A stretch of 64,000 nucleotides of DNA from a candidate division WOR-3 bacterium (GTDB taxonomy: Bacteria; Hydrothermota; UBA3072), in NCBI GenBank assembly GCA_016930175.1, contig JAFGHJ010000046.1, forward strand, positions 1,073-65,072, read 5' to 3'. Of this stretch, positions 152 to 64,000 are shown piece after piece (within the stretch, counting starts at the first letter, position 1; every line of letters starts with the position of its first letter). The position numbers were made by a program, and so were the translations under genes. The notes under the pieces are model-generated. The model saw nothing but the letters and a program-made list of their open reading frames with translations, made no database searches and was not told the origin of the DNA.

Positions 152-415
152 TTACGCTCTGGGATTTTCTTTGACTTTTTCTATCGCCTCCAAAACAATA
201 GAGGTAACTTTTGAACGAAATCCCGAACTATCCATTCTCGTTTTTACCACAGCGTGCCCGACATCACTGGTTGTATAGAAAGGTTCACATTTAGTTAGAG
301 CCAGAGCAATTATTTCTTCTCTATAAGGCTTGCAATTTGCATAATCAGGATAACTTTCAAAGATATCGCTCAAAATCTCCTCAACCATATTTTCCATGTA
401 ATTTCTTCTGTCCAT
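152..415 (-). CDS. ComFB-like small cysteine-containing protein (late competence development protein ComFB family), orphan
   Basis: 87 aa ORF. The motif NCKPYREEIIALALTKCEPFY resembles the ComFB Cys-x-x-Cys...ALN.LPP.Y core. No neighbouring competence genes. Confidence 0.4.
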   Translation of the reverse strand: MDRRNYMENMVEEILSDIFESYPDYANCKPYREEIIALALTKCEPFYTTSDVGHAVVKTRMDSSGFRSKVTSIVLEAIEKVKENPRA

Positions 416-18633: not shown

Positions 18634-18704
18634 TTAATACTCTTTTATAATAAATTTACTCTCTTTATGTTTCAATTTCCATGATTTTCTAACCATCGAA
18701 TTAT

Positions 18705-20132: not shown

Positions 20133-20255
20133 TTAATTTTATCTTAATATCTTTTATTCCTATATTTCCACACAATTGCCATATCTTTATTATATTTAGT
20201 ATTTCCATAATAGTCAAGTATTTCTTCAAAAGTTAAGTGTTATTTTATGTGGTTC

Positions 20256-26873: not shown

Positions 26874-28007
26874 CTACCATACCTCAGGAGGGGGATTTTG
26901 CAATTCATAATCCCCGGTCATATATCGCTGAACGAAAATTAAATCGTAACCCTTATCATAGTAATACCATATCTGATAAGCAGCTCCACTAGGATTAAAA
27001 GGTTCATCCACGACATAATCAGGAGGTCCTAAAATAATATAAACCTTTCCTCTATCTGTTCTCCATCCTTCAAAAAGAGAACCCCGTGCAAAATTCTTAT
27101 TAGCATAATCTACTCTCTGAAAATACTCGATTAAGAATTCATTTACTCCATCTTCAGGCGTGGGATCTTTACTTTCCCAGAATTCATTCCAGACTTTTTC
27201 TCGTTCTTCAACTTTAGCATTAAGCAATTTCTTCTCCTCCTCCATAGATGAAATATAAGCAACTTGCTTAACTCTCTCGAAATATCTTTTTGACTTAAAG
27301 AACGGTCTCCACACCGTAAAAGAAATAGATTTTCTAACAACTTCCTCTTTATTAACGTTCTTCACTTCCGCTATAAAATTGTACAAACCTTCCTCAAATC
27401 TATCTGCAGGAATAGTAACTTCAACATTTTGATTCTTCTTATCGGGAAGGACAGTATCTCTTTTGAAAAAAGTTTCTTTATCCTCGTCAGTAAAATAAAA
27501 ATTAAGATGGGTTTTTCCCTTTTCAAAACTAAAAATATTCAGCCCAATCCTGACTGTATCTTTATCGGTAATAACCTCTCTTGAAGGATTTGAAAACCAT
27601 CTAATTGATCCTATATCTGTTGATTTTAATCTGGATACCTCTAATTTTGCGGATCTACTCCATACTCTATTTGAATTACGATCCGATACTCTTAGAATAA
27701 CCTCAATTTTCCCTTCAGGTACTTTCACTTTCATAATACCTCTAAAATAAATATCATCGGATGTCGTCTCTTTATACTTATAAACTGAGAATTTATTTCT
27801 TTTACTTTCTCCTCCCAATTGATAGTTATCTTTTTTTACAACCAAAGAGGCTAAAAACTCTCCTGTATAAACAGAGTCTTTTTTCTGGAAGATTAAATCA
27901 GAATAAGATAATCCATAGTTTACGATAACATAGGGAATAGAGCTTGTATCTCTATCAATCTGAAAATCTACGTTAATACCTACAAATAACAAATAAAAAA
28001 AGATCAT
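26874..28007 (-). CDS. GWxTD domain-containing protein (secreted; conserved hypothetical)
   Basis: Signal-like N-terminus and a C-terminal GWRTDRGKVYIILGPPDYV block matching the GWxTD signature. Sits immediately downstream of the sigma-54 regulator on the same strand. Confidence 0.7.
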   Translation of the reverse strand: MIFFYLLFVGINVDFQIDRDTSSIPYVIVNYGLSYSDLIFQKKDSVYTGEFLASLVVKKDNYQLGGESKRNKFSVYKYKETTSDDIYFRGIMKVKVPEGKIEVILRVSDRNSNRVWSRSAKLEVSRLKSTDIGSIRWFSNPSREVITDKDTVRIGLNIFSFEKGKTHLNFYFTDEDKETFFKRDTVLPDKKNQNVEVTIPADRFEEGLYNFIAEVKNVNKEEVVRKSISFTVWRPFFKSKRYFERVKQVAYISSMEEEKKLLNAKVEEREKVWNEFWESKDPTPEDGVNEFLIEYFQRVDYANKNFARGSLFEGWRTDRGKVYIILGPPDYVVDEPFNPSGAAYQIWYYYDKGYDLIFVQRYMTGDYELQNPPPEVW

Positions 28008-28026: not shown

Positions 28027-29352
28027 TTACGAAGAAAACCGTATATTCAATTTTTTTATTTTCCTATAAAGAGTAGAAGGATGAATGCCCAAAATATCTG
28101 CAGCTCTACTCTTATCATTTTTTGATATTTCCAAAGCTTTTTTTATCGTTTTCCTCTCTATTTCTTCTAAATTCAACCTATCAACCTTACTCTTACTAGT
28201 AAACTCTTCAGGAATCGCCGAGGCACCAATGACATCTGAATCTTCTAATACTATTAACCGTTCAAGGAGATTTTCCAACTCTCTAACATTACCAGTCCAC
28301 TTATAATTCATAAGCTTCTCGTAAGCTTCATCAGTAAACGTTTTCTCTTTTACATTTAATCTTTCTGAAATTTTCTTATTAAAATGCTTAATTAAAGGAA
28401 GTATATCTTCTTTTCTTTCCCTAAGCGGAGGAATTTCTACAGGAATAACATTTAAACGATAGTATAAATCTTCCCTGAATTTACCTTCAGCAACTAAATT
28501 TTCAATATTCTCATTTGTAGCGCTTATTATTCTAACATCGACCTCAACTTCTTTTGTACTTCCAAGAGGTGTAAAACTCATCTCCTGAATAGCTCTGAGT
28601 AACTTCGGTTGTAATTCCATCGGCAACGTACTTATTTCATCAAGAAATAAAGTACCTTTATCTGCAGCAACAAACAATCCCTTCTTGTCTCTATCTGCAC
28701 CGGTAAAGGCGCCTTTCATATATCCAAAAAGCTCCGATTCCAATAATTCGGAAGGAAAAGCGGAACAATTAATCGGGACAAATTTCCCGGGTCTGTCCGA
28801 ATTATAATGAATCAAATTTGCTACCAATTCTTTGCCTGTGCCACTTTCGCCAAAGATGAGAATCGGAGAAGTCGTCGCGGCAACTTTCTTTATTTTTTCC
28901 CTCATTTGATTCATCTTCTCATTAATCCCAATAATTCGGAACTCTTCCAGTTTTTGCTCGCGAAGATTCTTCAGGCTCTTTTTAATCTTTATTTTATCCA
29001 AAGCCTCATTTAACCTCAAAATCAATTCTTCCATCCTGAAAGGCTTTCTTATATAATCTGAAGCTCCGCCCCTTATCGCTTCTATTGCCGAGTCAATTGA
29101 AGAATACGCTGTTATTAATATAATTACTGCCTCGGAATTTATTTTTTTGCAGCGACGAAGGACTTCCAGACCCGACATTTCCGGCATATTTATATCACTC
29201 AAAACAGCATCGTAATTACTTTCGGAAAATCTATTCAAAGCTTCTATCGGATCAGAAAAAACATCTACCTTAAATCCGTATTCTTCTAAGCCAAGTTTAA
29301 CCACTTCCAGAATACTGACCTCATCGTCAATAACCAAAATTTTTCCGTTCAT
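28027..29352 (-). CDS. Sigma-54-dependent response regulator (NtrC/PilR family)
   Basis: REC domain (ILVIDDE...D54), AAA+ sigma-54 activator domain (GESGTGKELVA, the GAFTGA loop seen as KGAFTGA) and a C-terminal Fis-type HTH. Start overlaps the kinase gene by 4 nt. Confidence 0.88.
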   Translation of the reverse strand: MNGKILVIDDEVSILEVVKLGLEEYGFKVDVFSDPIEALNRFSESNYDAVLSDINMPEMSGLEVLRRCKKINSEAVIILITAYSSIDSAIEAIRGGASDYIRKPFRMEELILRLNEALDKIKIKKSLKNLREQKLEEFRIIGINEKMNQMREKIKKVAATTSPILIFGESGTGKELVANLIHYNSDRPGKFVPINCSAFPSELLESELFGYMKGAFTGADRDKKGLFVAADKGTLFLDEISTLPMELQPKLLRAIQEMSFTPLGSTKEVEVDVRIISATNENIENLVAEGKFREDLYYRLNVIPVEIPPLRERKEDILPLIKHFNKKISERLNVKEKTFTDEAYEKLMNYKWTGNVRELENLLERLIVLEDSDVIGASAIPEEFTSKSKVDRLNLEEIERKTIKKALEISKNDKSRAADILGIHPSTLYRKIKKLNIRFSS

Positions 29353-30854
29353 AAAATAATACGCACCTCCGTACCTTCACCTAAAGCACTTTCAACGTCT
29401 ATGTCCCAGTTATGCAGTTCTATTATTTTCTTCACTATAGGAAGCCCAAAACCAAAACCTTCCTTAAAATGTGTATAAAAAGGAGAGAATATTTTATTTA
29501 AATCCCGCTTCTGTATACCGCATCCATCATCCTTAATAAAGAGTATTGTTGACCCCTTATCTTTTTTCGCTCCAAAAGCAAGATTTCCTCCATTCGACAT
29601 TGCTTTTAAAGAATTTGAACCAAGATTTAAAAAAACACTTTTGAGAAGATTATAATCCCCTTTTATCGAAATATCACCGGACACCTCGTTACTTAACTTA
29701 ATATTTTTATTAAAAAACTTACTTTGTTTTAACTCGACTATAACATCTTCAATAAGTTTACTAACACCAATCTCTTTATTCTTTAAATCAAAACTCTTAG
29801 TAAAATCCAAAAAGCTTTCAACTAAATAATCCAGTCTGTCAGATTCCTTTATTATAACTTCTTTAAGCTTTTCATTTTTATCCTTCTTGCCCTCGGGACA
29901 AGGCCCTATCAATTCGGCCGATGCCCTAATAGAAGAAACAGGATTCCTTACCTCGTGTGCAAGATTAGCCGCAAAATTACCAAGAGTCACAAGCTTATCT
30001 CTCATTTGCATTTTTCTTTCTATCTCTTTTTCCTCAGTTTTATCGTTAATCATTAAAATGGTTCCTTTACCATCTAATAAGCTACTACTTCTTCTTACCA
30101 TAAATACTTTATCTCCACTCTCAAGTTCCAGTTGTTTTTCTTCTCCCATTAAAATCCTTTCAATAGGCTCTTTAAAAGGGACCCTTGTAACATCCAAAAG
30201 GACATTTCCCGGAAAAAGTGGCACTCCAAGAAAGTTTGAAGACTTAGAGTTACTCCAGACTATACGACCACCTTCGTCTACTGTAACGATACCGTAATCA
30301 ATTGCTTCTACAATATCAGAGATATCAACTTTGACTCTGGTAAGTTGTTCCCTTAAAACTTGAACAATCAGGGACGAAACCGCAGCGGTAAAAATAAAAA
30401 CGAAAGAATATACAACAAATTCAATCAAAACGATATCAAGAGGTGGAAATTCTGGCAGACTTATAAGAATCAAACCTGTAGGAATTTTCTCTGTAAAAAA
30501 GAGTGACACCAGCCCAAAAGATAATATAGAATAACCACTCACAATAAAAGAATCCACAGGAAACAACAGATAAGCGCTCAAGACAATCAACGGAAGATAA
30601 AAAGAAACAAATGGACTTAAAGCAGATCCCGTAAAAACAATAAGAAAAGAAATATAAGTTATATCTAATAAAAGATTATACAACTTCACTTTTCGTTGAA
30701 TAAACAAAACAAATACTTCATCTATTATAAAAACAAAGAATAGAACAAGCAAAGGTAAAACGCTTTTACCTCTTTCTCTGAATACGCAAATCAGAGAAAA
30801 TAAAAGGATAAATAGAATAGCTCTATATAGGCAATATCTCTTAGTTTGACTCAC
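29349..30854 (-). CDS. Sensor histidine kinase (PilS-like; multi-TM N-terminus, PAS, HisKA, HATPase)
   Basis: Six-plus TM helices, then a PAS-like region, an H-box LAHEVRNPVSSI and G1/G2 ATPase motifs. Operonic with the sigma-54 regulator. Confidence 0.85.
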   Translation of the reverse strand: MSQTKRYCLYRAILFILLFSLICVFRERGKSVLPLLVLFFVFIIDEVFVLFIQRKVKLYNLLLDITYISFLIVFTGSALSPFVSFYLPLIVLSAYLLFPVDSFIVSGYSILSFGLVSLFFTEKIPTGLILISLPEFPPLDIVLIEFVVYSFVFIFTAAVSSLIVQVLREQLTRVKVDISDIVEAIDYGIVTVDEGGRIVWSNSKSSNFLGVPLFPGNVLLDVTRVPFKEPIERILMGEEKQLELESGDKVFMVRRSSSLLDGKGTILMINDKTEEKEIERKMQMRDKLVTLGNFAANLAHEVRNPVSSIRASAELIGPCPEGKKDKNEKLKEVIIKESDRLDYLVESFLDFTKSFDLKNKEIGVSKLIEDVIVELKQSKFFNKNIKLSNEVSGDISIKGDYNLLKSVFLNLGSNSLKAMSNGGNLAFGAKKDKGSTILFIKDDGCGIQKRDLNKIFSPFYTHFKEGFGFGLPIVKKIIELHNWDIDVESALGEGTEVRIIL

Positions 30855-30867
30855 GAAATCCTTTCTA

Positions 30868-32073
30868 TTACATAAACTGCTGAGCCATTTTGAAAATCGG
30901 AAGATACATTGCCATAACCATACCGCCTATAACACCTCCAAGAAGAAGTATCACAAGAGGCTCAAGAGCATTCATAAGGTTCGCTACAGCCTGATCAACC
31001 TCATCGTCATAAAAATCTGCCACTTTTGAAAGCATCTCATCCAATCCTCCTGTTTGTTCTCCTATCGTAATCATTTGAACAACCATTGGAGGGAACAGGG
31101 CTTTTTCTTTACTTAAGGGATCAGCAATAGATTCTCCCTGCGCTATTGAAGTTCGAGACCTTAGAACAGCATTCTCGACCAATTTATTACCAGTGGTTCC
31201 TGCTGTGATTTCAAGAGCATCAAGTATATTAACACCCGACGAAAGGAGTGTAGAAAGAGTTCTCGAAAATCTGGCAATTGCTTGTTTCTTTATCAAAGTA
31301 CCAAAAATCGGCAGCTTTATTAAAAAAGAATCGATCTGAAGATGTCCGACTTCAGTCTTGTAATAATATCTAATAAAAATAATTAAACCTACTGCCGCAG
31401 CCGCGATAATAAAGAAATACTTCCTTAAAAAATCACTTAAAGCGATAACCACCCTTGTGGGTAGCGGCAATTGACCACCGAGATCTTTGAACAACTGTGC
31501 AAATACCGGAATTACAAAAGTCAGCAAAACAGCAACAGCCATAACAGCAACTATAACAATAGCTGCCGGATAAACCATAGCTCCTTTCACTTTTCTCTTT
31601 ATGGAATCTGCTTTTTCGAGATAATCGGCAAGCCTGGCAAGAATAGTCGCAAGGGAACCTCCTTTCTCTCCGGCCTCCACCATATTAACATACAAATCTC
31701 CAAAAATTTCCTTATGTTCCCTCAAGGCATCGGCTAAAGTAGAACCTCCTTCTACTGCCGAGATTAAATCTTTCAATATGTCTTTAAACCTTTCCGATTC
31801 GACCTGAGCCACCTGAATATCAAGACATTTTATTAAAGGTAAACCCGCATTAATCATAACCGAAAATTGCCTTGTAAAAACAGAAATAGCTCTGCTGGAA
31901 ATCCTCCCTTTTAAGAAGGGAATAGTTATTTCCTTCGGTTTAGAGCGTATCGAGGTCGGAACAATTTTTCTCTCTCTCAATATTCTCTGGACTTCAGCAG
32001 GGTTCGCCGCAGTAATTTCTCCATTTTCTATTGTGCCACTTGGAGTTCTACCTTTCCACAGATAATCAGGCAT
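30868..32073 (-). CDS. pilC: Type IV pilus inner-membrane platform protein PilC (GspF family)
   Basis: 401 aa with two T2SSF repeats (the ...QFSVMINAGLPLIKCL... and ...LLSSGVNILDAL... blocks) and three TM segments. Confidence 0.9.
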   Translation of the reverse strand: MPDYLWKGRTPSGTIENGEITAANPAEVQRILRERKIVPTSIRSKPKEITIPFLKGRISSRAISVFTRQFSVMINAGLPLIKCLDIQVAQVESERFKDILKDLISAVEGGSTLADALREHKEIFGDLYVNMVEAGEKGGSLATILARLADYLEKADSIKRKVKGAMVYPAAIVIVAVMAVAVLLTFVIPVFAQLFKDLGGQLPLPTRVVIALSDFLRKYFFIIAAAAVGLIIFIRYYYKTEVGHLQIDSFLIKLPIFGTLIKKQAIARFSRTLSTLLSSGVNILDALEITAGTTGNKLVENAVLRSRTSIAQGESIADPLSKEKALFPPMVVQMITIGEQTGGLDEMLSKVADFYDDEVDQAVANLMNALEPLVILLLGGVIGGMVMAMYLPIFKMAQQFM

Positions 32074-32084
32074 CTTTTACCCCC

Positions 32085-33161
32085 TTAATGTAGAATTGTT
32101 TGTTTTTTAGCAATCATTTCCTCTAGTTCACCCGGTTCCCTGGAATAAGATATCGCATCCTCTATACTTATTTCTCGATCCATATACAATTTATAAAGTG
32201 ATTGATTCATTGTAATCATACCGAATTTTTGCCCGGCTTGCATGTTGGAGTACAACTGATGTGTTTTGTTATCTCTTATCAATGCTTTTACAGCCGGAGT
32301 ACCATAAAGAACCTCAACCGCAAGAGCTCTTCCGCCGGTTCTTTTCGGTATCAAACTCTGAGTAACAATACCTATAATAACAAAAGCTATTTGAGCTCTA
32401 ACCTGGTTATGCCTTTCAGGAGGGAAAGTATCAACTATTCTCGAAATAGATTCAACCGCTGAATTTGTATGCAAAGTGGCAATTGTAAGGTGACCGGTTT
32501 CCGCAACATTTAAAGCGGCTTCCATAGTCTCTCTATCCCTCATTTCGCCTATCATAACCACATCAGGATCCTGTCTGAGAATGTACTTTAACGCAATTGC
32601 GAATCCATCCGTATCCGAACCAACTTGTCTCTGGTTTACAATAGCTCTCTGATGTCTAAATAGATATTCTATTGGGTCTTCGATGGTAACAATATGAACT
32701 TTCCTCTCTCTATCTATCTTATCAACAACAGCCGCTAGAGTTGTAGATTTACCGCAACCTGTTGGTCCTGTTACAAGAATAAGACCCTTTTGCTTGTTCG
32801 CCATAGCAGCTATCACATCAGGCAAACCTAGCTGTTTAAAAGTCCTTATCTTAAAAGGAATAGTTCTTACCGCACAGGCCACCTGACCTCTCTGATAAAA
32901 AACATTAGCTCTAAATCGAGAAAGACCAGGTACCCCAAAGCTCAAATCGAGCTCTTTTTTCATTTCAAATTTCTTCTTTTGTTCGTCATTCAATATTGAA
33001 TAAACCAATTTCTCCAAATCATTCGGAGAAAGTGGGGCATAATTTGACTTTTCCAGTTGTCCGTCTTTTCGGTACATAGGTGGTGCAGCGGTAGTAAGAT
33101 GAAGGTCGGTTGCGCCTCGGCTTACCATTTCTTCCAGTAATGCTTTCATATCATAATCCAT
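32085..33161 (-). CDS. pilT: Twitching-motility retraction ATPase PilT
   Basis: 358 aa, Walker A LVTGPTGCGKSTT, Asp box and His box (GHLTIATLHTN) of the PilT/PilU family. No N-terminal GSPII_E_N domain. Confidence 0.9.
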   Translation of the reverse strand: MDYDMKALLEEMVSRGATDLHLTTAAPPMYRKDGQLEKSNYAPLSPNDLEKLVYSILNDEQKKKFEMKKELDLSFGVPGLSRFRANVFYQRGQVACAVRTIPFKIRTFKQLGLPDVIAAMANKQKGLILVTGPTGCGKSTTLAAVVDKIDRERKVHIVTIEDPIEYLFRHQRAIVNQRQVGSDTDGFAIALKYILRQDPDVVMIGEMRDRETMEAALNVAETGHLTIATLHTNSAVESISRIVDTFPPERHNQVRAQIAFVIIGIVTQSLIPKRTGGRALAVEVLYGTPAVKALIRDNKTHQLYSNMQAGQKFGMITMNQSLYKLYMDREISIEDAISYSREPGELEEMIAKKQTILH

Positions 33162-33183: not shown

Positions 33184-34926
33184 TTAAGATTCAACGGTAA
33201 CTCTTAGAATCTCATCCGTAGTGGTAAGACCCCTTTTTAGCTTAATAATACCATCATCTCTAAGAGTTCGCATTCCTTCCTTTTGAGCGGCTTTTTGTAA
33301 ATCATCGGTTGAAGCTCCCTTTAGAATCATTTGTCTTATATTCATAGAGATAGGCATAACCTCCGTTACCGCGATTCTACCCCTGTAACCGCTGGAATTA
33401 CACTCGGGACATCCTGCTCCAGTTTCATAAATTTCACTATTCCTTATATCTTCTTCTGATATACCCATTGTTTTCAACAACTCAACTTTATCGCTCTGAG
33501 TAATATCTATTTTTTTTCTACAATTCTTACATACTTTCCTTAAGAGACGCTGTGCCTGTATTAAATTTAAAGAACTCGCTATCAAAAAAGGTTCTATACC
33601 AATATCCACCAAACGGTTCACCGCGCTGGGAGCATCATTGGTATGAAGAGTCGATAAAACGAGGTGACCAGTAAGAGCTGCTCTAATGGCAATCGATGCC
33701 GTATCTATTTCTCGAATCTCTCCAATAAGTATTATATTAGGGGATTGCCTTAAGAAAGCGCGTAGAGCATCAGGAAAATCAAATCCTATATCTTGATTTA
33801 CCTGAACCTGGTTTATTCCCTTAAGATTATATTCAACTGGATTTTCAACGGTCATAATATTTACTTCCGGTTTATTCAATGCAGAAAGAGCAGAATATAG
33901 AGATGTTGATTTTCCACTTCCTGTAGGGCCGGTAACAAGAATTAAACCATAAGGTCTAGCAATAGCTTTCTGAAACTCCCTGAGCGCATCCGGTTCGAAA
34001 CCAAGATCTTCCATATTTAACATAAGAGAAGATGGATCTAATATTCTCATCACAACTTTTTCGCCAAATACTGTAGGAATCACACTAACACGAAGGTCGA
34101 TAGCCTTCCCTTCAACTCTTATTTTTATTCTTCCGTCCTGATTAAGCCTTCTTTCCGAAGCATCCATAGTACCAGTCATTATTTTTATCCTCGTAGAAAT
34201 AGCATTTCTTAATCTATACGGCGGTTCCGCCACCTGCTGCAAAACACCATCGATTCTAAATCTTACACGAAGAGTCTTCTCATAAGGCTCAATATGGATA
34301 TCGGATGCTCCCTTCTTTACAGCAGAAGTAATCAAATAATTGACAAGTTTAATTACGGGTTTCTCCTGAGCCTCTGCCCTCCAATCCTCCTCTTCCTCCT
34401 CAAGATCAGACTTTCTGATAAAGATATTCTCGTCGCTTTCCTTAGCAAATATAAATTCTTCCTCTACCTCTTCTTCTTTCTTTCTTATTCTGTCTACTTG
34501 TTTAGTTACCGGATAAAATTGATCAAGAAGTTTCTTCATTTTCCAGAAAGTTACAACCACTGTCTCAACCTTCAAACCGGTCTTAAACTCAACCGCATCA
34601 ATTGCTTCTAAATCGCCGGGATTAACCACTCCCAAAATTAATTTTTTCCCTTTCCTTCTTATTGGAAAAACCTGGTACCGTTGTGCCATATCGGGCGGAA
34701 TCAGGGAAATCAGACTTTTATCTACGTCTTCAGGCTTGATATCAATAGAAGAAACCCGAAACTGCAAAGAAAGCGTTTTTGCCAGTTCGCTATCCGTAAT
34801 AAATCCTTCCTCAATAAGCACTGCTCCAAGCCTTTTTGCTACTTGTTTTTGCTTTCGCAGCGCCACGTTTAACTGCTCGGGTGTTATTTTCCCGGCTTGA
34901 ACCAGAATTTCACCAAGTCTCTCCAT
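33184..34926 (-). CDS. Type IV pilus/T2SS assembly ATPase, PilB/MshE-like, with an MshEN-type c-di-GMP-binding N-domain motif
   Basis: N-terminal RLGAVLIEEGFITDSELAKTLSLQ fits the MshEN motif RLGxxL(V/I)xxG(I/F)(L/V)xxxxLxxxLxxQ. Walker A LVTGPTGSGKSTS, a tetracysteine CxxC...CxxC, and a GspE C-terminus. Confidence 0.88.
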   Translation of the reverse strand: MERLGEILVQAGKITPEQLNVALRKQKQVAKRLGAVLIEEGFITDSELAKTLSLQFRVSSIDIKPEDVDKSLISLIPPDMAQRYQVFPIRRKGKKLILGVVNPGDLEAIDAVEFKTGLKVETVVVTFWKMKKLLDQFYPVTKQVDRIRKKEEEVEEEFIFAKESDENIFIRKSDLEEEEEDWRAEAQEKPVIKLVNYLITSAVKKGASDIHIEPYEKTLRVRFRIDGVLQQVAEPPYRLRNAISTRIKIMTGTMDASERRLNQDGRIKIRVEGKAIDLRVSVIPTVFGEKVVMRILDPSSLMLNMEDLGFEPDALREFQKAIARPYGLILVTGPTGSGKSTSLYSALSALNKPEVNIMTVENPVEYNLKGINQVQVNQDIGFDFPDALRAFLRQSPNIILIGEIREIDTASIAIRAALTGHLVLSTLHTNDAPSAVNRLVDIGIEPFLIASSLNLIQAQRLLRKVCKNCRKKIDITQSDKVELLKTMGISEEDIRNSEIYETGAGCPECNSSGYRGRIAVTEVMPISMNIRQMILKGASTDDLQKAAQKEGMRTLRDDGIIKLKRGLTTTDEILRVTVES

Positions 34927-34929
34927 ATC

Positions 34930-36630
34930 TTACCTAACCTGTGTCTCGCGAGCTACTTCCTCAAGAGTTGTAAGTCCATCTATTATCTTCTTAATTCCTT
35001 CATCACGCAAAGAACTCATTCCTTCTTTTCTGGCTTGCTCTTCCACCTCATCGGACGTTCTTCCATCAATAATCATTTTCCTGATATTTGAACTCATTGG
35101 CAAAACCTCGAATAATCCTAACCTTCCTTTATACCCTGTTTTCCTACAACTCTCACAACCTCTTCCATGAAAAATTTTCCGTCCGTTCAGCCTTGCCGGA
35201 TCAAAACCCAGTTTTAATATTTCTTCATTTGAAATCTCTAGAGGAGCTTTACATTTCGTACAAATTGTTTTTATTAGTCGTTGTGAAATAATAAGTTCAA
35301 GTGTTGAAGCCAAGAGAAACGGAGCAACGCCCATGTTAATAAGACGGGTAACTGTTGCTGCCGCAGAATTCGTATGCACTGTAGAAAGAACAAGGTGTCC
35401 TGTAAGCGAAGAACGTATGGCGATATCCGTTGTAGGCTTGTCTCTTATTTCTCCAACCATGATAACATCAGGATCCTGGCGCAAAAAAGACTTCAAGGCT
35501 TCCACAAAAGTAAGACCAATTTCCTCTCTTACCTGCAATTGATTAACCCCAAAAAGAGTATACTCCACAGGGTCCTCAGCTGTAGAAACATTTATATCTA
35601 TATTATTGATTTCCTTTAAAATCGAATATAACGTAGTAGTTTTTCCTGATCCTGTTGGTCCGGTAAGCAAAATAATCCCGTGTGGCTTTTTTATAGCTTT
35701 AAGTGTATCATCCAGAGCCTTTTGCTCAAAGCCCAATTTGGTTAGATCAAATTCCATACTCTCTTTATCAAGAACTCTTATACCTACTTTCTCGCCAAAA
35801 ACCGTAGGCACAGTTGCAATTCTAAAATCTATTTTTCTCCCCATAAGCTCCGCCTGAAATCTACCATCCTGGGGCCTTCTTTTTTCCTGTATCTTAAGAT
35901 TAGACATGACTTTAAGTCTTGATACAACAGCCTTATGGAGACGCCACGGAGGAGGTTGAAAATTGTGAAGAACTCCGTCGACTCTCATTCTAACTCGAAT
36001 ATCTTTTTCAAAAGGCTCAATATGAAGATCGCTCGCTCTTTCAATTACAACTTTCTTTAAAAGAAAATTAACATATTGAACAACCGGACCAGAATCTATT
36101 TGCGCAGCAAGAGCAGAGACTCCCTCCCCTTCCTCCTCCTCATCCTTCGCCAATAATTCAACCGAATCCTCTGCAAGACCCATTTCTTCCGCTACTTCGT
36201 CTTCTATAGCTTTAGTCTCGTAATGTTCTTTTAAAATTTTTCTAATAGATTTTTCAGAAGCTACTAATGGCTTAATTTCATAACCTGTTCTGAAGCGAAT
36301 ATCTTCTTGAGCCTGTAAATCATTTGGATTTATCATAGCTAAATATAAGGTTTTCCCCTTCTTTTCTACCGGCACACACTCATAAGCTCCTGCAATATCC
36401 GGAGAAATTAAATTTAAAACTTCATCATCTAAGGGATAATCGGAAAGTACTACGCCTTTTACATTTAAATTCTTTTCGAGAGCCTTAATCAACTGTTCTT
36501 CAGTGACATAACCTAATTCTATAAGGTTTGCGCCTAAACGTCCTCCTTCTTCTCTCTGCCTTTTAAGCGCTTCTTTCAACTGATCTTCTGTTATGGCACC
36601 ATCTAATAATAGAATCCTTCCTACTCTCAC
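34930..36630 (-). CDS. pilB: Type IV pilus assembly ATPase PilB (GspE family), paralog 1
   Basis: GSPII_E_N domain, Walker A LLTGPTGSGKTTT, tetracysteine motif CTKCK...CESCRKTGYKGR. Its N-motif RLGANLIELGYVTEEQL only partly matches the MshEN consensus. Confidence 0.88.
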   Translation of the reverse strand: MRVGRILLLDGAITEDQLKEALKRQREEGGRLGANLIELGYVTEEQLIKALEKNLNVKGVVLSDYPLDDEVLNLISPDIAGAYECVPVEKKGKTLYLAMINPNDLQAQEDIRFRTGYEIKPLVASEKSIRKILKEHYETKAIEDEVAEEMGLAEDSVELLAKDEEEEGEGVSALAAQIDSGPVVQYVNFLLKKVVIERASDLHIEPFEKDIRVRMRVDGVLHNFQPPPWRLHKAVVSRLKVMSNLKIQEKRRPQDGRFQAELMGRKIDFRIATVPTVFGEKVGIRVLDKESMEFDLTKLGFEQKALDDTLKAIKKPHGIILLTGPTGSGKTTTLYSILKEINNIDINVSTAEDPVEYTLFGVNQLQVREEIGLTFVEALKSFLRQDPDVIMVGEIRDKPTTDIAIRSSLTGHLVLSTVHTNSAAATVTRLINMGVAPFLLASTLELIISQRLIKTICTKCKAPLEISNEEILKLGFDPARLNGRKIFHGRGCESCRKTGYKGRLGLFEVLPMSSNIRKMIIDGRTSDEVEEQARKEGMSSLRDEGIKKIIDGLTTLEEVARETQVR

Positions 36631-36770
36631 ACTAATAATATAAATACTTTCAGCTTAAAAGTCAAGGTTATAAATAATTAGTGAAAACCTATTAAAGTAA
36701 TACTTTTTATTTATTTTTCTGCTAAAAGATACATAAATAAGAAATTATATAAGTATTTTGCTATAGGGGC

Positions 36771-36808: not shown

Positions 36809-37156
36809 GGGGGCGAATTGGCTCTCGACGGGATACAACTGGATTGTAAGCTGCATGCCGAGCTGCCATAGCTCGAAAAACTATGGTATTTGTAATAAAT
36901 GGCAACTATAATTATGCCATGGCAGCTTAATTAAGCTGCTCGTCCTTTCCGGACGTTTTCTTCTTACTCCGGATGTGGGCGTCATAGAAAGAAGATAGGT
37001 TGCAATTTTGCCAGGGTTTTGCAGCCGAATAAAGACTGGCTTGGTTATTCTGATTCCTGTGATTGGGTAAAGAATAGCGACACTTAAACAATCACTAAGC
37101 ATGTAGAAGTTTTCAAACAGGTATTTCGGACGCGGGTTCGATTCCCGCCGCCTCCA
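36809..37156 (+). ncRNA. ssrA: tmRNA (SsrA); tag reading frame 36901-36930 encodes (A)GNYNYAMAA then stop
   Basis: 5' GGGGGCGAAUUGGCUCUCGACGGG and 3' GGACGCGGGUUCGAUUCCCGCCGCCUCCA form a 7 bp acceptor stem plus T-arm, with CCA not encoded. The internal ORF GGC AAC TAT AAT TAT GCC ATG GCA GCT TAA is followed by UUAAGCUGC, paralleling E. coli GCAGCUUAAUAACCUGC. Confidence 0.9.
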
Positions 37157-37180
37157 GTAAAACAAAACAGAGGAGGAATT

Positions 37181-42869: not shown

Positions 42870-44291
42870 TCAAAAAAATTTTTCTTTTTTTCTTTTTGCC
42901 TTGGGCAGAATTCCCATCTGATTTCTATATTTGGCAACAGTGCGTCTAGTAATATTAATACCTTCCTTCTCCAATTCTTTTTTTATCTCTATATCCGACA
43001 ATTTTTCACTCCCCTCTGCTTCTATCATCCTCCTGATCTTCTCCCTAATAGTATTTGTAGAAATATTTTGTTCCCTTCCTTTAACTCCTCCGCTCAAGAG
43101 ATGTTTTATATGAAAAACCCCTTTTGGACTTTGAACATATGTGTCTTTTATGTATCTGGAAATCGTTGATTCTGATAAATTAGTCGTTCTAGCAATTTTT
43201 TTAAGTGTAAGTGGGTTCATGTGCATTACACCTTTATTGAAAAAATCTTTCTGGAAATTTATTATATACTCCATTACTTTTCTAAAGTTCTTTCTTCGCA
43301 TTTCCAATGATTGGAGAATAAATTTTGCTCTTTCCATCCATTTTTCAACAAATTTAACTGTCTTTTTGTCATAATTTTTTGGAGCCTGTAAAACTCTTAG
43401 ATAATTTGTGTTTATACGAAAGAAAGGGAGTTCCGGCTCATTTATAGAAATTTTAAGCTCTTCTCCGTTCTTCTCAACTATAACGGAAGGGGTAATATAT
43501 TCAACTTTTCCAAAGTCTTTTCCCGTAGGACGCGGATTGATTTTTTGAATATTTTCTATTGCTTTATTAATCTTCTCCGGATCCATATTCAACTCATAAG
43601 AAATCTTCCCTATTTCTCTTCTCTTGTATTCTTCCCAAAAATCATTAACAATTTTGAGTTCCAACTCCGACTTTTCAGGCGATCTTTCCAGATGTATTTT
43701 TATTGATTCTCGGACATTTCTAGCAGCAATTCCGGGCGGAGCACATTCTTGAATAATTTTAAGTGTTGCTTCTATTTTATCTACCGGAATACCGAAAAAC
43801 TCAGCAATTGTAGGTAAGGGTGTATCCAAGAATCCTTCATCGGTAAGTGAATCTATCATGTACTCTCCAACTTCAATCAATTTCTCATCGGATAATTCCA
43901 TCCTTAGTTCTGTCTTCAGTTGCTCGGGAAGAGTCAAAGTATAAGGTATTTGCTTTCTTTCAACTTCGTCTAAATCTGAAGGGACAAAGTAGGTCGGGAA
44001 ATCCTCTGTAAAAAAATCCTTGAGTTCTTTATTTAAAAGATCTTCTTCTTTTTCTTTTTCCTCTTCTTCAAAAGAAGCAGATTCCGGCGATTCAGAAGGC
44101 TCGGACGATTCATCATCTTCAGCTAAACTTAACATAGGATTGGCTTCGATCTCCTGATAAATTATGTTCTTTAGCTCAAGACGCGGACATTGAGTAACTC
44201 TTATCATGAGAACCTGAAGGGGACTCATCTTTTGTTCGAGCTTGAGACTTTGCTGTAGTTTTTGTATTGATGAAATTCTTCTGCTCTCCAT
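42870..44291 (-). CDS. rpoN: RNA polymerase sigma-54 factor
   Basis: Region I (LQQSLKLEQKMSPLQ), core-binding region, the HTH (ARTTNLSESTISRYIKD) and the RpoN box ARRTVAKYR. Confidence 0.92.
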   Translation of the reverse strand: MESRRISSIQKLQQSLKLEQKMSPLQVLMIRVTQCPRLELKNIIYQEIEANPMLSLAEDDESSEPSESPESASFEEEEKEKEEDLLNKELKDFFTEDFPTYFVPSDLDEVERKQIPYTLTLPEQLKTELRMELSDEKLIEVGEYMIDSLTDEGFLDTPLPTIAEFFGIPVDKIEATLKIIQECAPPGIAARNVRESIKIHLERSPEKSELELKIVNDFWEEYKRREIGKISYELNMDPEKINKAIENIQKINPRPTGKDFGKVEYITPSVIVEKNGEELKISINEPELPFFRINTNYLRVLQAPKNYDKKTVKFVEKWMERAKFILQSLEMRRKNFRKVMEYIINFQKDFFNKGVMHMNPLTLKKIARTTNLSESTISRYIKDTYVQSPKGVFHIKHLLSGGVKGREQNISTNTIREKIRRMIEAEGSEKLSDIEIKKELEKEGINITRRTVAKYRNQMGILPKAKRKKEKFF

Positions 44292-44295
44292 AATT

Positions 44296-45015
44296 TTAGA
44301 GTTTAAATTTCTGTCCCAGATACAGTTTTTTTGCTGTTTTGTTAGAAATCAAATCGCCTGCTTTACCTTTTAATATTATTCTACCATCAAACATCAAGTA
44401 TGCTCTATCGGTAATTTGCAATGTTTCTCGTACATTGTGGTCAGTTATCAATATTCCTATATTCTTCTTCTTAAGAACCAAAACCATCTCCTGGAGTTCT
44501 TCTCTGGTTATTGGATCAATGCCCGTAAAAGGTTCATCTAATAATAAAAATTTAGGATTCGATGTGAGGGCTCTGGCTATCTCAACCCTTCTTCTCTCTC
44601 CTCCGGAGAGTTTATTTGCATTCCTCTGAAGTAAAGAAGACAGCTTAAATTCCTTCACCAACTCTTTAAATCTTTTTTCTCTTTCTTTGGTATCCGTGAT
44701 TAATATTTCAAGCATAGCCATGAGATTATTTTCCACTGAAAGCCCTCTAAAAATAGAAGCCTCTTGTGGTAAATAGCCTATTCCCAATTTAGCTCTTTTA
44801 TGCATTGGTTTCTTAGTAATCTCTTCGCTATCCAAATAAATATCACCCGATTCAGGTTTAATAAATCCGGTTATCATATAGAAAGTAGTCGTTTTCCCCG
44901 CTCCGTTCGGACCTAACAACCCAACAATTTCGCCCTCTTCTATTTCTATTTTAACCTGATCGACTACTGTTTTTCTATTGTATTTTTTAATTAGATTTTC
45001 CGCCCTGAGTTTCAT
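44296..45015 (-). CDS. lptB: LPS export ABC transporter ATP-binding protein LptB
   Basis: Walker A GPNGAGKTT, ABC signature LSGGERRRV and Walker B LLLDEP. Conserved position next to rpoN. Start taken at MKLRAENLIKKY, which matches the LptB N-terminus. Confidence 0.9.
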   Translation of the reverse strand: MKLRAENLIKKYNRKTVVDQVKIEIEEGEIVGLLGPNGAGKTTTFYMITGFIKPESGDIYLDSEEITKKPMHKRAKLGIGYLPQEASIFRGLSVENNLMAMLEILITDTKEREKRFKELVKEFKLSSLLQRNANKLSGGERRRVEIARALTSNPKFLLLDEPFTGIDPITREELQEMVLVLKKKNIGILITDHNVRETLQITDRAYLMFDGRIILKGKAGDLISNKTAKKLYLGQKFKL

Positions 45016-45826
45016 TTTTTGCAAAGCTACCTCTCGATTTACCTTTAACTAAAACACTATCTATGGTATCTTCATCATAGTAAATATTAATGGTATCTCC
45101 CCAGACTATATTTCTCCCATCTTCAGTGTATGTTATAACTCTTCCGTTTAAAGACTTCATAATATTCGCTTTATGGTCTACAAAAATCATATCACCAGTT
45201 ATAGAGTCCCGTTCTTCTAATATGAACGGTTCATCAAGTAGAGTAGAAATTTCATTTTTACAATTGTGGATTAACCGCCCTGAATTCCCTAATATATTTG
45301 AAGTTTCGAATTTCACGTCTGATAAAAATTTATAGATAGAATCCCTTACTATATATACAGTATAATCTGATTTGACTCTGATTTCAGGAGATTTGAATTC
45401 CGGAGAACCTCTTATTACAACGGAATCCTCAAAAAAATCTGCCGATTCCCCTTTTATCAAAACAGAATCGGAAATAAATATCAAATTTCCAATTAATTTC
45501 CCTTCCTCTTTTTCTCTGAAAAAAATCAGAGAATCGCCTATCAAAGTATCTTCTTTCCATATTTTCACATTTCCACTTCCAAAGACAATTTTATATGGCA
45601 CCTTATAATTCAAATAATCCGCGCTTAAGGAAAATTTTTTACCCTTAAGGAAGACACTGTCTTTTAACATTATGGAAGCATCTGTTTGAACTGCTTGCTT
45701 TGCAGTTATATAAAGGTTTTCAGAATAAATCTCTATTCCGTTTTTAAAAATATTTTTATTTCTATCAACAATCTCCATCGATCCCGAGCGGATTTCATAA
45801 GGCACCATTAACAATAAAAGAATCAT
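44987..45826 (-). CDS. lptA: OstA/LptA-like periplasmic LPS-transport protein
   Basis: Repeated beta-jellyroll OstA-N-type segments. Lies between the lptC-like gene and lptB. Confidence 0.65.
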   Translation of the reverse strand: MILLLLMVPYEIRSGSMEIVDRNKNIFKNGIEIYSENLYITAKQAVQTDASIMLKDSVFLKGKKFSLSADYLNYKVPYKIVFGSGNVKIWKEDTLIGDSLIFFREKEEGKLIGNLIFISDSVLIKGESADFFEDSVVIRGSPEFKSPEIRVKSDYTVYIVRDSIYKFLSDVKFETSNILGNSGRLIHNCKNEISTLLDEPFILEERDSITGDMIFVDHKANIMKSLNGRVITYTEDGRNIVWGDTINIYYDEDTIDSVLVKGKSRGSFAKNETQGGKSN

Positions 45827-46320
45827 TCAAATTCACCTTTCCCTGAAAACTTTTCTTTTATAACTATATGCTTTAAACTCGGATCGGATTCAAGTCCTTT
45901 ACCGCGATATACCTGTTTATCTTTAGAATATTTTACTTCGCCATCCGTAAATATCTTTTGCTTTTCTTCAGACCAGTTCAACTCATCCGTCCATAAAGTC
46001 ACTGAATCGCTTGACTTAATTACGATGTTGCCAACTGCCTTTAAATCATTAGTTTTGCGAATAACATATCCGCTGTCGGCTTTTAATTTAGAAGAATGCT
46101 CTGAATTTTCGTCAAAAAAATCCAACTCCAACTGATGTATAACAGTTGTATCAGATATTTTTGCATCCTTGGCAGTCAATTTCCACATAAGCCGGCTTCC
46201 CTTATAATTTTTGAGAATAAAAGAAGTAAGACTTTCCTCCTTTATCTCAAACTCTGCTGCACTCTGCTTTTCACAGGATACAAAAACAATTGCTAACATT
46301 AATATCAACATCTTTATCAT
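45823..46320 (-). CDS. lptC: LptC-like membrane-anchored protein
   Basis: N-terminal anchor (MLAIVFVSC), size 165 aa and position upstream of lptA-lptB. Confidence 0.55.
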   Translation of the reverse strand: MIKMLILMLAIVFVSCEKQSAAEFEIKEESLTSFILKNYKGSRLMWKLTAKDAKISDTTVIHQLELDFFDENSEHSSKLKADSGYVIRKTNDLKAVGNIVIKSSDSVTLWTDELNWSEEKQKIFTDGEVKYSKDKQVYRGKGLESDPSLKHIVIKEKFSGKGEFE

Positions 46321-46458: not shown

Positions 46459-47580
46459 TTGACATTTAACACATATCCACATATAATCATTTTATATATG
46501 GAGGTTTATGTGAGATCATTAAAATTATATATTATTATTTCACTTTTTGTTATTTTCTTTAATCTATCAGCTCAAATCGTAATCGAATCGGATGAGATAC
46601 CGCATGAGGTCGGTATTCATTGGATAAAAAACAGTTCAATAGAAGTTAACGTTAATCTCGGAACAACAGGTGGACCTCAAACCTGGGATTTTACATCTCA
46701 ACCTATGGGCGCTGAAAACAGTTATCTCACAATTGTTGATCCTGCTTCCAGTCCTTATATAGACTCACTTCCAAGCGCAAATCTTGTTTACCGGTCACCT
46801 TCAGATTCTGATACTGTTTACCAGTATTATAATCGCAATTCTGATTTTTTAATAATGTTGGGTATGGGAGGAATATCCACCACTACACCTTTCTTCTGGA
46901 GATACGAACCAACAGATTCAATCCCATCCCCTCAAAGCTATGGAAATTCACATAGATTCAGATATGGATTTACTGAAACGATAAGTCCAGGCAATTATAT
47001 GGAATATTTCCATTATGGTATTCAGAAATATGATGCCTTCGGAACCGTTAATATACCTTATGGCATTTATGAATGCCTGCGTATTCGCACTTACGATACC
47101 TGTGCTATGATAATGTATTTTAGCGATATTCCAATTCTTTACGATACGACAACTTATATAAATTACCAATTCGTGGCAGAAAATTATGCAGCCGTAGTCT
47201 GTGTTAAGAGTCATCCAGACGAAATAGACACAAATTATTCTGAAGCCTATATACTTGAGAGACTAACATCATTTACGAGTGGCATTAAAGAACACGGCAA
47301 ACCAACAGATATAGAATGCACGCACTATCCACAGATATTTTCAGACTATACTACAATACAATATTCTTTACCGGAAACGTATAATATAGAGTTAACAGTA
47401 CATGACCTAACAGGAAGAACTGTAAGAAAACTGGTTAAAAATACCCAAGAGAAAGGGAATTATTTATGTAAATGGTACGGAAATAATGACGCCGGCAAAA
47501 AACTCTCCAGTGGAATATATTTTTACCGATTAAAAGTTGGAAACAATAAATTTACTAATAAGGTCTTATTAATACGGTAA
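46459..47580 (+). CDS. Secreted protein of unknown function with a type IX secretion C-terminal sorting domain
   Basis: Signal peptide and C-terminal YSLPETYNIELTVHDLTGRTVRKLV...SGIYFYRLKVGNNKFTNKVLLIR (Por_Secre_tail pattern). Confidence 0.7.
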   Translation: MTFNTYPHIIILYMEVYVRSLKLYIIISLFVIFFNLSAQIVIESDEIPHEVGIHWIKNSSIEVNVNLGTTGGPQTWDFTSQPMGAENSYLTIVDPASSPYIDSLPSANLVYRSPSDSDTVYQYYNRNSDFLIMLGMGGISTTTPFFWRYEPTDSIPSPQSYGNSHRFRYGFTETISPGNYMEYFHYGIQKYDAFGTVNIPYGIYECLRIRTYDTCAMIMYFSDIPILYDTTTYINYQFVAENYAAVVCVKSHPDEIDTNYSEAYILERLTSFTSGIKEHGKPTDIECTHYPQIFSDYTTIQYSLPETYNIELTVHDLTGRTVRKLVKNTQEKGNYLCKWYGNNDAGKKLSSGIYFYRLKVGNNKFTNKVLLIR

Positions 47581-62932: not shown

Positions 62933-63600
62933 TATTTATTCTTTTCGCTGATTTCTCTAATTACTTTTTGAACAATTATTTTCGTTTGCTGTTTACCAAA
63001 CTCACTCAAAGCCTTTTTAACAATAAAGTCGAGCAATAATTTCATAAATTTATTTATTTCATCCCTATTTAATCCTTCCGAATTTCCAACCTTCAATTCC
63101 ATACCCTCTAACTTGATTAAACCTTTAACCTTATCATCTTTAGAAAGAGCCGAAAGACCACTAGCTATATAACCTCTCCACATCTCAGAATCAGAATCAC
63201 TCACGAATTCTCTGATCAACATATTCAATTGCTCCGACCTATCCCTTAAGAGGTTTCCTATCTCCGAAGAAACGTCCTTCTTCAATCCTTCAAGGCTCTC
63301 TTTCACCTTTTCTTCAATATCTTCAATATTTTGTTCTAATACAAGACCGAGATAATTTCCGTCGAAAGGTACAATAACAATAGTATCTCTACCAATTCCT
63401 TTTATCGAACTTATCCCACCAATCTTACATGAATCTGCTATAATCTCAGCAGCGGAACCCGTAAAAGCAACCAGGTCGTCGATATTACCCGGAGTTATTC
63501 CTCCACTATTTAAAATCGACCCATCTTCAGAAGATACAAGAGCAAATCCCTTAATATCTTTAACTTTCATTAATCCATCTAACGGTATATCAGAACTCAT
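62932..63600 (-). CDS. Roadblock/LC7 (MglB-like) domain protein with a C-terminal extension
   Basis: The N-terminal about 110 aa are Roadblock-like (GFALVSSEDGSILNSGGITPGN...DTIVIVPFDGNYLGLVLE). Confidence 0.6.
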   Translation of the reverse strand: MSSDIPLDGLMKVKDIKGFALVSSEDGSILNSGGITPGNIDDLVAFTGSAAEIIADSCKIGGISSIKGIGRDTIVIVPFDGNYLGLVLEQNIEDIEEKVKESLEGLKKDVSSEIGNLLRDRSEQLNMLIREFVSDSDSEMWRGYIASGLSALSKDDKVKGLIKLEGMELKVGNSEGLNRDEINKFMKLLLDFIVKKALSEFGKQQTKIIVQKVIREISEKNK

Positions 63601-64000
63601 TCTTTATTTCCTTCAGTTTTTTCTTTACCAATAGCTTCCCGAGAACTTCCGTAGCTTTTCCCTGCAGACAATTAAGTACTTCAGAAAAAAATTCTTTGGT
63701 TCTTTCAAGATCTAAAGAAAATTTTTCGGTATTGATATTCAAACTCTTCCCATTAAAAGAAACAGCTTTCTTCACCTCATACTTATCAATAAGCTCATTA
63801 AGACCTTCAAGCCATGGACCATCACCAAAAGCTTTTAAAAAAACATTGGTGTCTTTAAGTCCTTTTTCAATAATTCTCTTTCTTTCTTCCGGATCATAAA
63901 GCAAAGACTCTTTAAATAACCAGGATAATGCTTTCAAAGTATCCAGTTCCGGAAGAGGACTCAAACTAATGATTTCGGATAATTTTTTCTTTCCGTCAGC
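63590..64000 (-). CDS. Hypothetical protein, 5'-truncated by the window edge
   Basis: The reading frame stays open to the end of the window and the listed TTG start is arbitrary. No motif is recognised in the visible C-terminal 136 aa. Confidence 0.4.
   Translation of the reverse strand, partial: ADGKKKLSEIISLSPLPELDTLKALSWLFKESLLYDPEERKRIIEKGLKDTNVFLKAFGDGPWLEGLNELIDKYEVKKAVSFNGKSLNINTEKFSLDLERTKEFFSEVLNCLQGKATEVLGKLLVKKKLKEIKNEF

Follow-up and report, generated by a model that had tools for sequence, protein, structure and literature searches.

Tandem PilB-type ATPases with predicted c-di-GMP-binding motifs beside a single pilC in a candidate-division WOR-3 bacterium

A 64 kb stretch of DNA from a candidate-division WOR-3 bacterium, hereafter the window, carries on its minus strand two adjacent genes for PilB-type extension ATPases, PilB-a (upstream paralog) and PilB-b (downstream paralog), adjoined by pilT and a single pilC. 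The arrangement is read here, with about even confidence, as a type IVa pilus (T4aP) motor operon in which two PilB motors would act on a single PilC, with c-di-GMP (the cyclic dimer of GMP) tuning both. An earlier, sequence-only reading had described two full-length GspE-family ATPases lying head-to-tail upstream of pilT and pilC; its coordinates proved exact, both proteins display the Pfam T2SSE and MshEN domains, and the ATPase motifs are present. That observation is confirmed and the interpretation attached to it partly supported, but the contrast drawn between the paralogs is overstated. Both PilB proteins occur verbatim in NCBI, as adjacent entries from a 106-kb contig of a metagenome-assembled genome, and 3 nt separate the pilB-a stop from the pilB-b ATG.

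34930..36630, minus strand: pilB-a, upstream paralog (PilB-a), 566 aa, GTG start; NCBI MBN1695664.1, named 'TadA'
33184..34926, minus strand: pilB-b, downstream paralog (PilB-b), 580 aa, ATG start; MBN1695663.1, 'type IV-A pilus assembly ATPase PilB'
32085..33161, minus strand: pilT, retraction ATPase, 358 aa; TIGR01420 pilT_fam, 472.6 bits (cutoff 319.1)
30868..32073, minus strand: pilC, inner-membrane platform, 401 aa; two Pfam T2SSF matches; sole pilC of the window

The two paralogs are 42% identical over their full length and match T2SSE (E = 2e-134 and 4e-135) and MshEN/PF05157 (E ~1e-18) in Pfam. PilB-b exceeds the cutoff of the type IV-A PilB equivalog model TIGR02538 (695.2 bits against 675.65; model positions 2-563/564), whereas PilB-a, at 667.1 bits, lies 8.5 below that cutoff, yet with TIGR02538 as its best model (GspE follows at 570.3); by these sequence scores it is PilB-like and not a certified equivalog. 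Other identities were considered and rejected, including (i) GspE (TIGR02533; 570.3 bits for PilB-a and 586.8 for PilB-b, cutoff 630.25), with no gsp genes in the window; (ii) TfpB (NF053534; 460.7 and 483.2 bits, respectively, cutoff 850); (iii) ComGA and PilT, whose NCBIfam scores fall below that of TIGR02538 and below their own cutoffs; and (iv) TadA/CpaF for PilB-a, whose sole TadA-family match is TIGR03819 at 46.2 bits (cutoff 373). A TadA identity is also contradicted by the MshEN domain, the tetracysteine motif and the PilB-like fold of PilB-a, and the NCBI name of MBN1695664.1, 'Flp pilus assembly complex ATPase component TadA', is a generic fallback and misleading.

The N-terminal 150 residues of each paralog match PilF, the PilBs of Geobacter and Myxococcus, and MshE in the PDB, and the AlphaFold2 model of PilB-a (mean predicted local distance difference test score, pLDDT, 79.6) finds its best match in the Geobacter PilB core, with a template modelling (TM) score of 0.90 and 50% identity. 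The ATPase core of the full-length PilB-b model is of low confidence (mean pLDDT 66), and only the secondary structure of its N-domain is used here. PilB-a displays the canonical motifs GPTGSGKT, TAEDPVE, DPDVIMVGEIRD, TGHLVLSTVHT, RRPQDGR and two CxxC; both paralogs keep the Lys of Walker A, the Asp-box Glu that binds Mg, an atypical Walker B with the catalytic Glu, two Arg fingers, the His box, and the four Cys residues of a tetracysteine Zn site arranged as two CxxC pairs. Judged by these residues, both look like functional extension ATPases. The paralogs diverge most in the MshEN_C subdomain (31% identity) and the linker (29%).

The c-di-GMP-binding MshEN unit comprises 53 residues, with two 24-residue RLGxx(L)(V/I)xxG(I/F)(L/V)xxxxLxxxLxxQ motifs separated by a 5-residue spacer; each motif contributes six key residues (R, L, G, L, L and Q) and accommodates one half of the ligand (Wang et al. 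2016, PMC5013675). Both paralogs carry such a unit at the N-terminus:

34762..34920, minus strand: predicted c-di-GMP site of PilB-b, residues 3-55, RLGEILVQAGKITPEQLNVALRKQ + KQVAK + RLGAVLIEEGFITDSELAKTLSLQ; 12/12 key residues
36469..36627, minus strand: predicted c-di-GMP site of PilB-a, residues 2-54, RVGRILLLDGAITEDQLKEALKRQ + REEGG + RLGANLIELGYVTEEQLIKALEKN; 10/12 strict key residues

The motif strings quoted in the sequence-only reading are exact, but they represent the second copy only; the first had been missed, and each protein in fact has motifs I and II with a 5-residue spacer between them. The fit of the downstream paralog to the consensus holds for all 12 key residues in both motif copies. 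The upstream paralog had been described as a partial match without the Gln, which is correct in that Asn54 replaces it, but the full two-motif site is present, at 10/12 key residues strictly and 11/12 when published tolerated variants are allowed. The only deviations of PilB-a are V3 (Leu to Val, MshE L10) and N54 (Gln to Asn, MshE Q61).

The model NF053729 ('c-di-GMP_motif', 53 positions, cutoff 38) scores PilB-b at 67.4 bits (E = 7e-19) and PilB-a at 64.9 bits (E = 4e-18), so far above the cutoff that the motif strings are not chance matches. PilB-a aligns without gaps to MshE 9-64 (PDB code, 5HTL), and the sequence matches of the two paralogs to 5HTL have E = 1.4e-14 and 1.6e-14; the proposal that one motor alone is gated by c-di-GMP finds no footing in these alignments and scores. 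In both paralogs AlphaFold2 predicts four helices within residues 2-56 (pLDDT ~72-88) followed by an α/β subdomain, the helices comprising residues 3-9, 15-28, 32-38 and 44-55 in PilB-a (pLDDT 83-88) and 2-10, 16-29, 33-39 and 45-56 in PilB-b. The Pfam MshEN match was rejected as evidence of c-di-GMP binding, as it spans residues ~57-141, the α/β subdomain only.

In MshE, L10 forms with L54 and L58 a hydrophobic triangle that stacks on the second guanine, and Q61 hydrogen-bonds the ribose-phosphate, which puts both residues within or beside the second-guanine half-site (Wang et al., PMC5013675). By analogy, both deviations of PilB-a would weaken that one half-site. The L10A substitution in MshE lowers affinity 36-fold, and Q218E in PilF GSPII-B lowers it 77-fold with a dissociation constant (KD) still at 0.46 μM; K or L at the first motif position is tolerated and compatible with 6 nM binding (PMC11731258). 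The comparison suggests that the changes in PilB-a lower affinity rather than abolish binding, and that the two paralogs differ in affinity at most, with PilB-a probably the weaker binder.

The relationship of the paralogs was analysed in neighbour-joining (NJ) trees with 100 bootstraps, whose deep nodes are provisional. PilB-a and PilB-b fall into two clades, A and B, each monophyletic in 100% of replicates; clade B groups with PilBs of Acidobacteriota, Myxococcota and Deltaproteobacteria/Desulfobacterota type (76%), and A and B are sisters in only 20%. These trees provisionally place PilB-b in the canonical PilB lineage and PilB-a in an old clade of its own, known from WOR-3, TA06 and relatives. 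A recent duplication, the outcome by which the sequence-only reading would have been refuted, does not match this topology or the 42% identity of the pair.

A comparison of 234 near-full-length homologues bears out that the motif residues are conserved in orthologues: in the two clades the Gly, the two Leu and the Gln of motif I vary little or not at all. Clade B keeps these positions invariant, with L or I at position 2, the last Gln in 103/118 sequences, and K more frequent than R and R more than Q as the first motif residue. In clade A, position 2 of motif I is V49/L9/I8 and the last position N41/Q24/H10/L5. By sequence, the motif is conserved in orthologues of both paralogs, and the second half-site is consistently relaxed in clade A. 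A genome scan with the clade-A alignment, which worked on generic Walker-motif patterns, gave at least 80 PilBs from other phyla and no WOR-3 locus among the matches listed, and these loci served as outgroups. An outgroup of 90 PilBs from other phyla reaches 12/12 with permissive residue sets in 27 cases and 10-11 in 31 more, and the good-scoring members include relatives of the confirmed binders from Chloracidobacterium and Myxococcus. A c-di-GMP motif of the MshEN type on PilB is known and widespread across phyla, and alone adds little.

The tandem arrangement was compared across a sample of 11 pairs, the window and ten further loci obtained by exact-protein look-ups and one fetched locus: (i) WOR-3 loci L081, L082, L083, L084 (complete genome CP070834), L089 and L090; (ii) the TA06 locus L085; and (iii) the unclassified loci L086, L091 and L001. 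The gene pilB-a is directly followed by pilB-b in 11/11, the two lying -4 to +8 nt apart, whereas the genes that flank them are unrelated from locus to locus. L091 keeps the pair but has neither pilT nor pilC next to it; in all other loci pilT, pilC and then a pilS-like kinase gene come after the pair, so that a single pilC follows in 10/11. A pilR-like gene follows the kinase in 7/9 further loci; it is absent in L084 and was not detected in L001 at a strict threshold. In L086, pilin genes come after pilR. The gap between pilB-b and pilT measures 9-29 nt apart from one WOR-3 sub-lineage, where a 53-77-aa open reading frame (ORF) with no Pfam match intervenes (L083 6082-6243; L089 9679-9912).

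When the 12 key positions are scored permissively in each pair (PilB-a/PilB-b), the values are 11/12 in the window, 11/11 in L081, 12/12 in L082, 12/12 in L083, 11/9 in L084, 9/12 in L085, 12/5 in L086, 12/12 in L089, 12/11 in L090, 12/11 in L091 and 11/8 in L001. At least one paralog therefore reaches at least 11 of the 12 positions in 11/11 pairs, the degenerate partner being PilB-b in L084, L001 and L086 and PilB-a in L085. This at-least-one-intact pattern is suggestive, at n = 11, of a functionally shared c-di-GMP input.

Apparent losses of the PilB-a motif in L082 and L090 were rejected, the gene calls starting 5 codons late. The true N-terminus is MRIGQ/MRIGR (L082 ~9986-10000; L090 ~6302-6316); the internal Met called as the start drops the first R-I-G of the motif, which is why it seems absent from these two loci in automated scans.

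Dual PilBs with one PilC also occur in Planctomycetota (L030 and L048, in the order pilB-pilT-pilB-pilC), and as tight pilB-pilB-pilC clusters in Omnitrophota (L059) and Verrucomicrobiota (L068). These PilBs fall in different clades, which suggests that the pairs arose independently. In L048 and L050, one PilB carries a good c-di-GMP motif and its partner a degenerate one.

Besides the N-terminal site, the ATPase core of PilB-b carries several derived residues. In Geobacter PilB, E357 coordinates Mg, and D398 and E400 belong to pore loop 1 (PMC5424180). The corresponding segments of PilB-b are:

33832..33852, minus strand: PilB-b Asp box TVENPVE, EDP changed to ENP (N362); E365 (equivalent to Geobacter PilB E357) retained
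33703..33723, minus strand: PilB-b catalytic Glu and pore loop 1, GEIREID, from ancestral GEIRDxE; D406E and E408D

The Asp-box Asp is present in 99% of the 90 outgroup PilBs and in all sampled clade-A sequences, whereas Asn occupies the position in 51/52 clade-B sequences at least 73% identical to the window PilB-b (the 52nd has Asp) and in none at 55-65%. The Arg-finger loop of PilB-b reads RLNQDGR in place of RRPQDGR, and the pore-loop swap together with a Pro to Thr/Asn change in the Arg-finger loop is found in 52/52 clade-B sequences at the same identity threshold, again in none at 55-65%. For a further change, QDPD to QSPN, the comparison covered the window protein alone. In this lineage PilB-a, too, has a changed pore loop 1, from which the second acidic residue has been lost (GEIRDKP, generally GEIRDK[P/A]). 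Divergence from orthologues is alike for the two paralogs, the PilB-b N2D and C-terminal domain (CTD) being 81% and 80% identical to their orthologues; with evolutionary rates alike, neither paralog is decaying. The PilB-b changes point, at the level of sequence, to altered chemistry at the nucleotide site and an altered contact with the platform.

The genes pilB-a and pilB-b are co-transcribed and, with a spacing of -4 to +8 nt in each of the lineages compared, almost certainly translationally coupled. Two motors on one platform is the most likely reading of the pair, supported by tight pairing beside a single pilC. Both motors would then serve the adjacent single PilC and be opposed by PilT, with a split of labour between PilB-a and PilB-b comparable to that of Acinetobacter baylyi PilB and TfpB. 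The nucleotide c-di-GMP would modulate both motors, probably with higher affinity at PilB-b, and pilus extension could be tuned via both, possibly at two concentration thresholds, rather than by gating one alone.

Several points weigh against the two-motor reading. The WOR-3 proteins are known from their sequences, and a second pilC may lie elsewhere in the genome. Pilin, secretin, PilMNO and prepilin peptidase genes are absent from the window, as the sequence-only reading had already noted for pilin, pilMNOPQ and the peptidase: Pfam detected no PilM/N/O/P/Q or PilD among essentially all window ORFs of at least 100 aa, and a six-frame scan of the window for the prepilin signature G/(F,M)TL(I,L)E gave a single match, a false one inside PilB-a. 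The same Pfam survey detected no GGDEF, EAL, HD-GYP or PilZ domain, and neither the 64 kb nor ~190 kb of related loci showed a gene for a diguanylate cyclase or a phosphodiesterase, so that c-di-GMP signalling in the host is assumed. Look-ups past the window ends yielded short Logan contigs only, in which pilin, secretin and cyclase genes were not located. The binding effects of Leu to Val and Gln to Asn are extrapolated from different substitutions in other proteins, c-di-GMP left the in vitro ATPase rate of MshE and Clostridium perfringens PilB2 unchanged, and the deep nodes of the phylogeny rest on NJ bootstraps only (76%). In addition, an extension ATPase is as a rule specific to its own machine (PMC11656802), in keeping with a single motor for each.

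This last point leads to the alternative in which each paralog drives its own type IV filament (e.g., motility versus competence, adhesion or a secretion pseudopilus), the second platform and pilins lying elsewhere and the tandem reflecting co-regulation only. It accords with the machine-specific use of MshE and PilB in Vibrio cholerae (PMC11656802), with a window free of pilins, and with the location of the strongest divergence between the paralogs in MshEN_C and the linker, a region thought to dock machine components. However, only one pilC and one pilT lie beside the pair in 10/11 loci, the gap of -4 to +8 nt is kept across lineages ~50% diverged and is more typical of stoichiometric partners, and both paralogs score as PilB, not as GspE, ComGA or TfpB. 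That the c-di-GMP motif is lost from one partner or the other, but in no pair from both, would also be hard to explain for independent machines, and the two-filament alternative is considered unlikely.

A closer association of the two proteins is conceivable, namely an obligate PilB partnership, either as a mixed hexamer or as two rings acting in sequence on one PilC, with sensing carried by either member. Such a partnership, which we regard as quite improbable, would explain why the genes are never apart, why translational coupling is constant and why each pair keeps at least one intact motif; if true, type IV pilus extension would have its first motor that is heteromeric or obligately dual. 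Its specifically hetero-oligomeric form, a mixed hexamer or a stacked or alternating complex of PilB-a and PilB-b with sensing and ATP turnover partly divided, is about as improbable or slightly more so. In its favour, the genes are tightly and universally coupled and appear never apart, the motif is lost in either subunit but never in both, pore loop 1 is altered in both paralogs of one lineage while second-shell active-site changes are fixed in PilB-b, and bacterial two-hybrid work in other species has reported that extension ATPases interact (PMC11656802). On the other hand, no heteromeric PilB or GspE hexamer is known, and every strictly essential catalytic residue is kept in both proteins, neither of which is a dead subunit. 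The PilB-b changes, moreover, flank its own inter-subunit active site, formed by the Arg-finger loop of N2D and the Asp box of the CTD, so that PilB-b to PilB-b contacts fit them equally well or better.

Least probable of all, and very unlikely, is that one paralog is chiefly a signalling or regulatory protein or a spare, a role for which PilB-b would be the candidate here with Asn for a 99%-conserved Asp of EDP and a rearranged pore loop 1, and for which Myxococcus xanthus PilB, reported as a c-di-GMP-linked signalling protein in exopolysaccharide control (PMC5544727), offers a precedent, but its derived residues are fixed across sequences 73-100% identical and imply purifying selection, all catalytic essentials are retained, it evolves no faster than PilB-a, and B orthologues of other lineages keep canonical motifs.

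Besides the motor genes, the two-motor operon comprises regulatory genes and a possible terminal member:

29349..30854, minus strand: PilS-like sensor histidine kinase; N-terminus with multiple transmembrane (TM) segments, then HisKA and HATPase_c (Pfam)
28027..29352, minus strand: PilR-like sigma-54-dependent response regulator; REC, AAA+ and Fis helix-turn-helix; 4-nt overlap with the kinase gene
26874..28007, minus strand: GWxTD-domain protein (Pfam and TIGR04514), 19-nt gap after pilR

The minus strand from 36630 to 26874 thus forms one compact operon, pilB-a, pilB-b, pilT, pilC, pilS-like, pilR-like and GWxTD, with successive intergenic gaps of 3, 22, 11, 13, -4 and 19 nt. The best NCBIfam matches of pilC are the PilC models, at 476.6 bits and under their cutoff of 700, and orthologues of the kinase at the equal operon position match 6TM_PilS. 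The GWxTD gene may be the final operon member and may be lineage-specific; the relative L081, whose PilB-a is 75% and PilB-b ~73% identical to those of the window, displays two GWxTD genes after pilR (18596-20988). The following elements lie upstream of the operon:

36637..36665, minus strand: sigma-70-like site TTGACT-17-TATATT, ending 7 nt ahead of the GTG of pilB-a; at best a weak candidate promoter
36809..37156, plus strand: tmRNA (ssrA), tag peptide GNYNYAMAA; divergent from pilB-a, bounding the operon upstream
42870..44291, minus strand: rpoN (sigma-54), Pfam Sigma54_AID, CBD and DBD; the partner sigma factor for the PilR-like activator

A 94-aa ORF at 36881-37165 (minus strand) overlaps the tmRNA and is spurious. 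Sigma-70 and terminator scans of the region found nothing above chance, sigma-70-like sites being no commoner than in shuffled sequence, and a sigma-54 promoter search returned nothing beyond chance expectation; no promoter is claimed here. The rpoN gene closes an lptC-lptA-lptB-rpoN block (42870-46320, minus strand) and lies 6 kb from the pil operon.

Two genes near the window ends touch on cyclic-dinucleotide signalling or on pilus motors:

152..415, minus strand: ComFB-domain protein, 87 aa; PF10719, E = 3e-18
63590..64000, minus strand, cut by the window end: PATAN (PatA_N) domain protein; full gene in L088 1386-2216

The ComFB family has recently been shown to be a widespread receptor of c-di-GMP and cyclic di-AMP (c-di-AMP) tied to pilus-dependent functions (PMC12448109), and apart from this gene and the two PilBs nothing in the window hints at cyclic-dinucleotide signalling. 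The title of a bioRxiv preprint states that PATAN response regulators of Synechocystis bind the PilB motor, and the complete WOR-3 genome (L084) contains another PatA_N gene (4026-4994), 5 kb upstream of the pilB pair. The remaining window genes are housekeeping genes and type IX secretion markers, the latter comprising a homologue of PorV and two proteins whose C-terminal sorting domains are of the FlgD_ig type (55967-57010, minus strand; 18705-20132, minus strand; 46459-47580, plus strand), which fits an FCB-group-like cell envelope.

Literature searches on pili of WOR-3, on c-di-GMP in WOR-3 and on tandem pilB turned up nothing relevant, and in the searchable literature the coupled PilB pair is apparently undescribed. 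One PilB hexamer is usually credited with the extension of a type IV pilus, and the one studied exception, that of A. baylyi, left physical cooperation open; the coupled pair beside a single PilC is an ancient arrangement that has stayed stable across a whole group of uncultured phyla (WOR-3, TA06 and their relatives). It offers natural material on platform sharing by two extension ATPases and on the distribution of c-di-GMP input between them, and both paralogs are small soluble proteins open to direct recombinant expression.

The pil cluster of Geobacter and Myxococcus has the order pilB-pilT-pilC-pilS-pilR-pilA. The WOR-3 operon resembles it in gene order, in its sigma-54-dependent PilR and in its PilS-type kinase with six TM segments, but differs in an extra upstream pilB and in the absence of pilA after pilR in the window. 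As for the c-di-GMP site, the reference proteins are MshE (5HTL) and the c-di-GMP-binding PilBs, including (i) M. xanthus PilB, (ii) Chloracidobacterium thermophilum PilB, (iii) C. perfringens PilB2 and (iv) the GSPII-B/C domains of Thermus thermophilus PilF. The WOR-3 paralogs share with these MshE-type binders the two-motif unit with a 5-residue spacer at the N-terminus of the ATPase, predicted here to form a four-helix bundle; unlike them, WOR-3 has two such genes side by side, one of which, pilB-a, encodes Val in place of L10 and Asn in place of Q61. MshE is a component of the MSHA pilus system, whereas the WOR-3 paralogs classify as type IVa PilB.

Paralogous ATPases that cooperate on one machine are also represented by PilT and PilU, whose genes are likewise usually adjacent (PMC11656802). 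These are retraction motors without MshEN domains or Zn fingers, whereas the duplicated motor of WOR-3 is the extension ATPase. The closest functional comparison is with A. baylyi, where a single T4aP is extended by two motors, PilB and TfpB (Ellison et al. 2021, PMC8213720; PMC11656802). In both systems two extension ATPases of distinct phylogeny accompany one PilC and one PilT, and in both the two motors are proposed to work on one pilus in different roles. In contrast, neither WOR-3 paralog is TfpB, and the WOR-3 case is drawn from genes rather than from experiment. The tfpB gene of A. baylyi does not lie beside a platform gene, and c-di-GMP is mentioned 0 times in the TfpB paper (PMC8213720), whereas the WOR-3 pair is adjacent and coupled.

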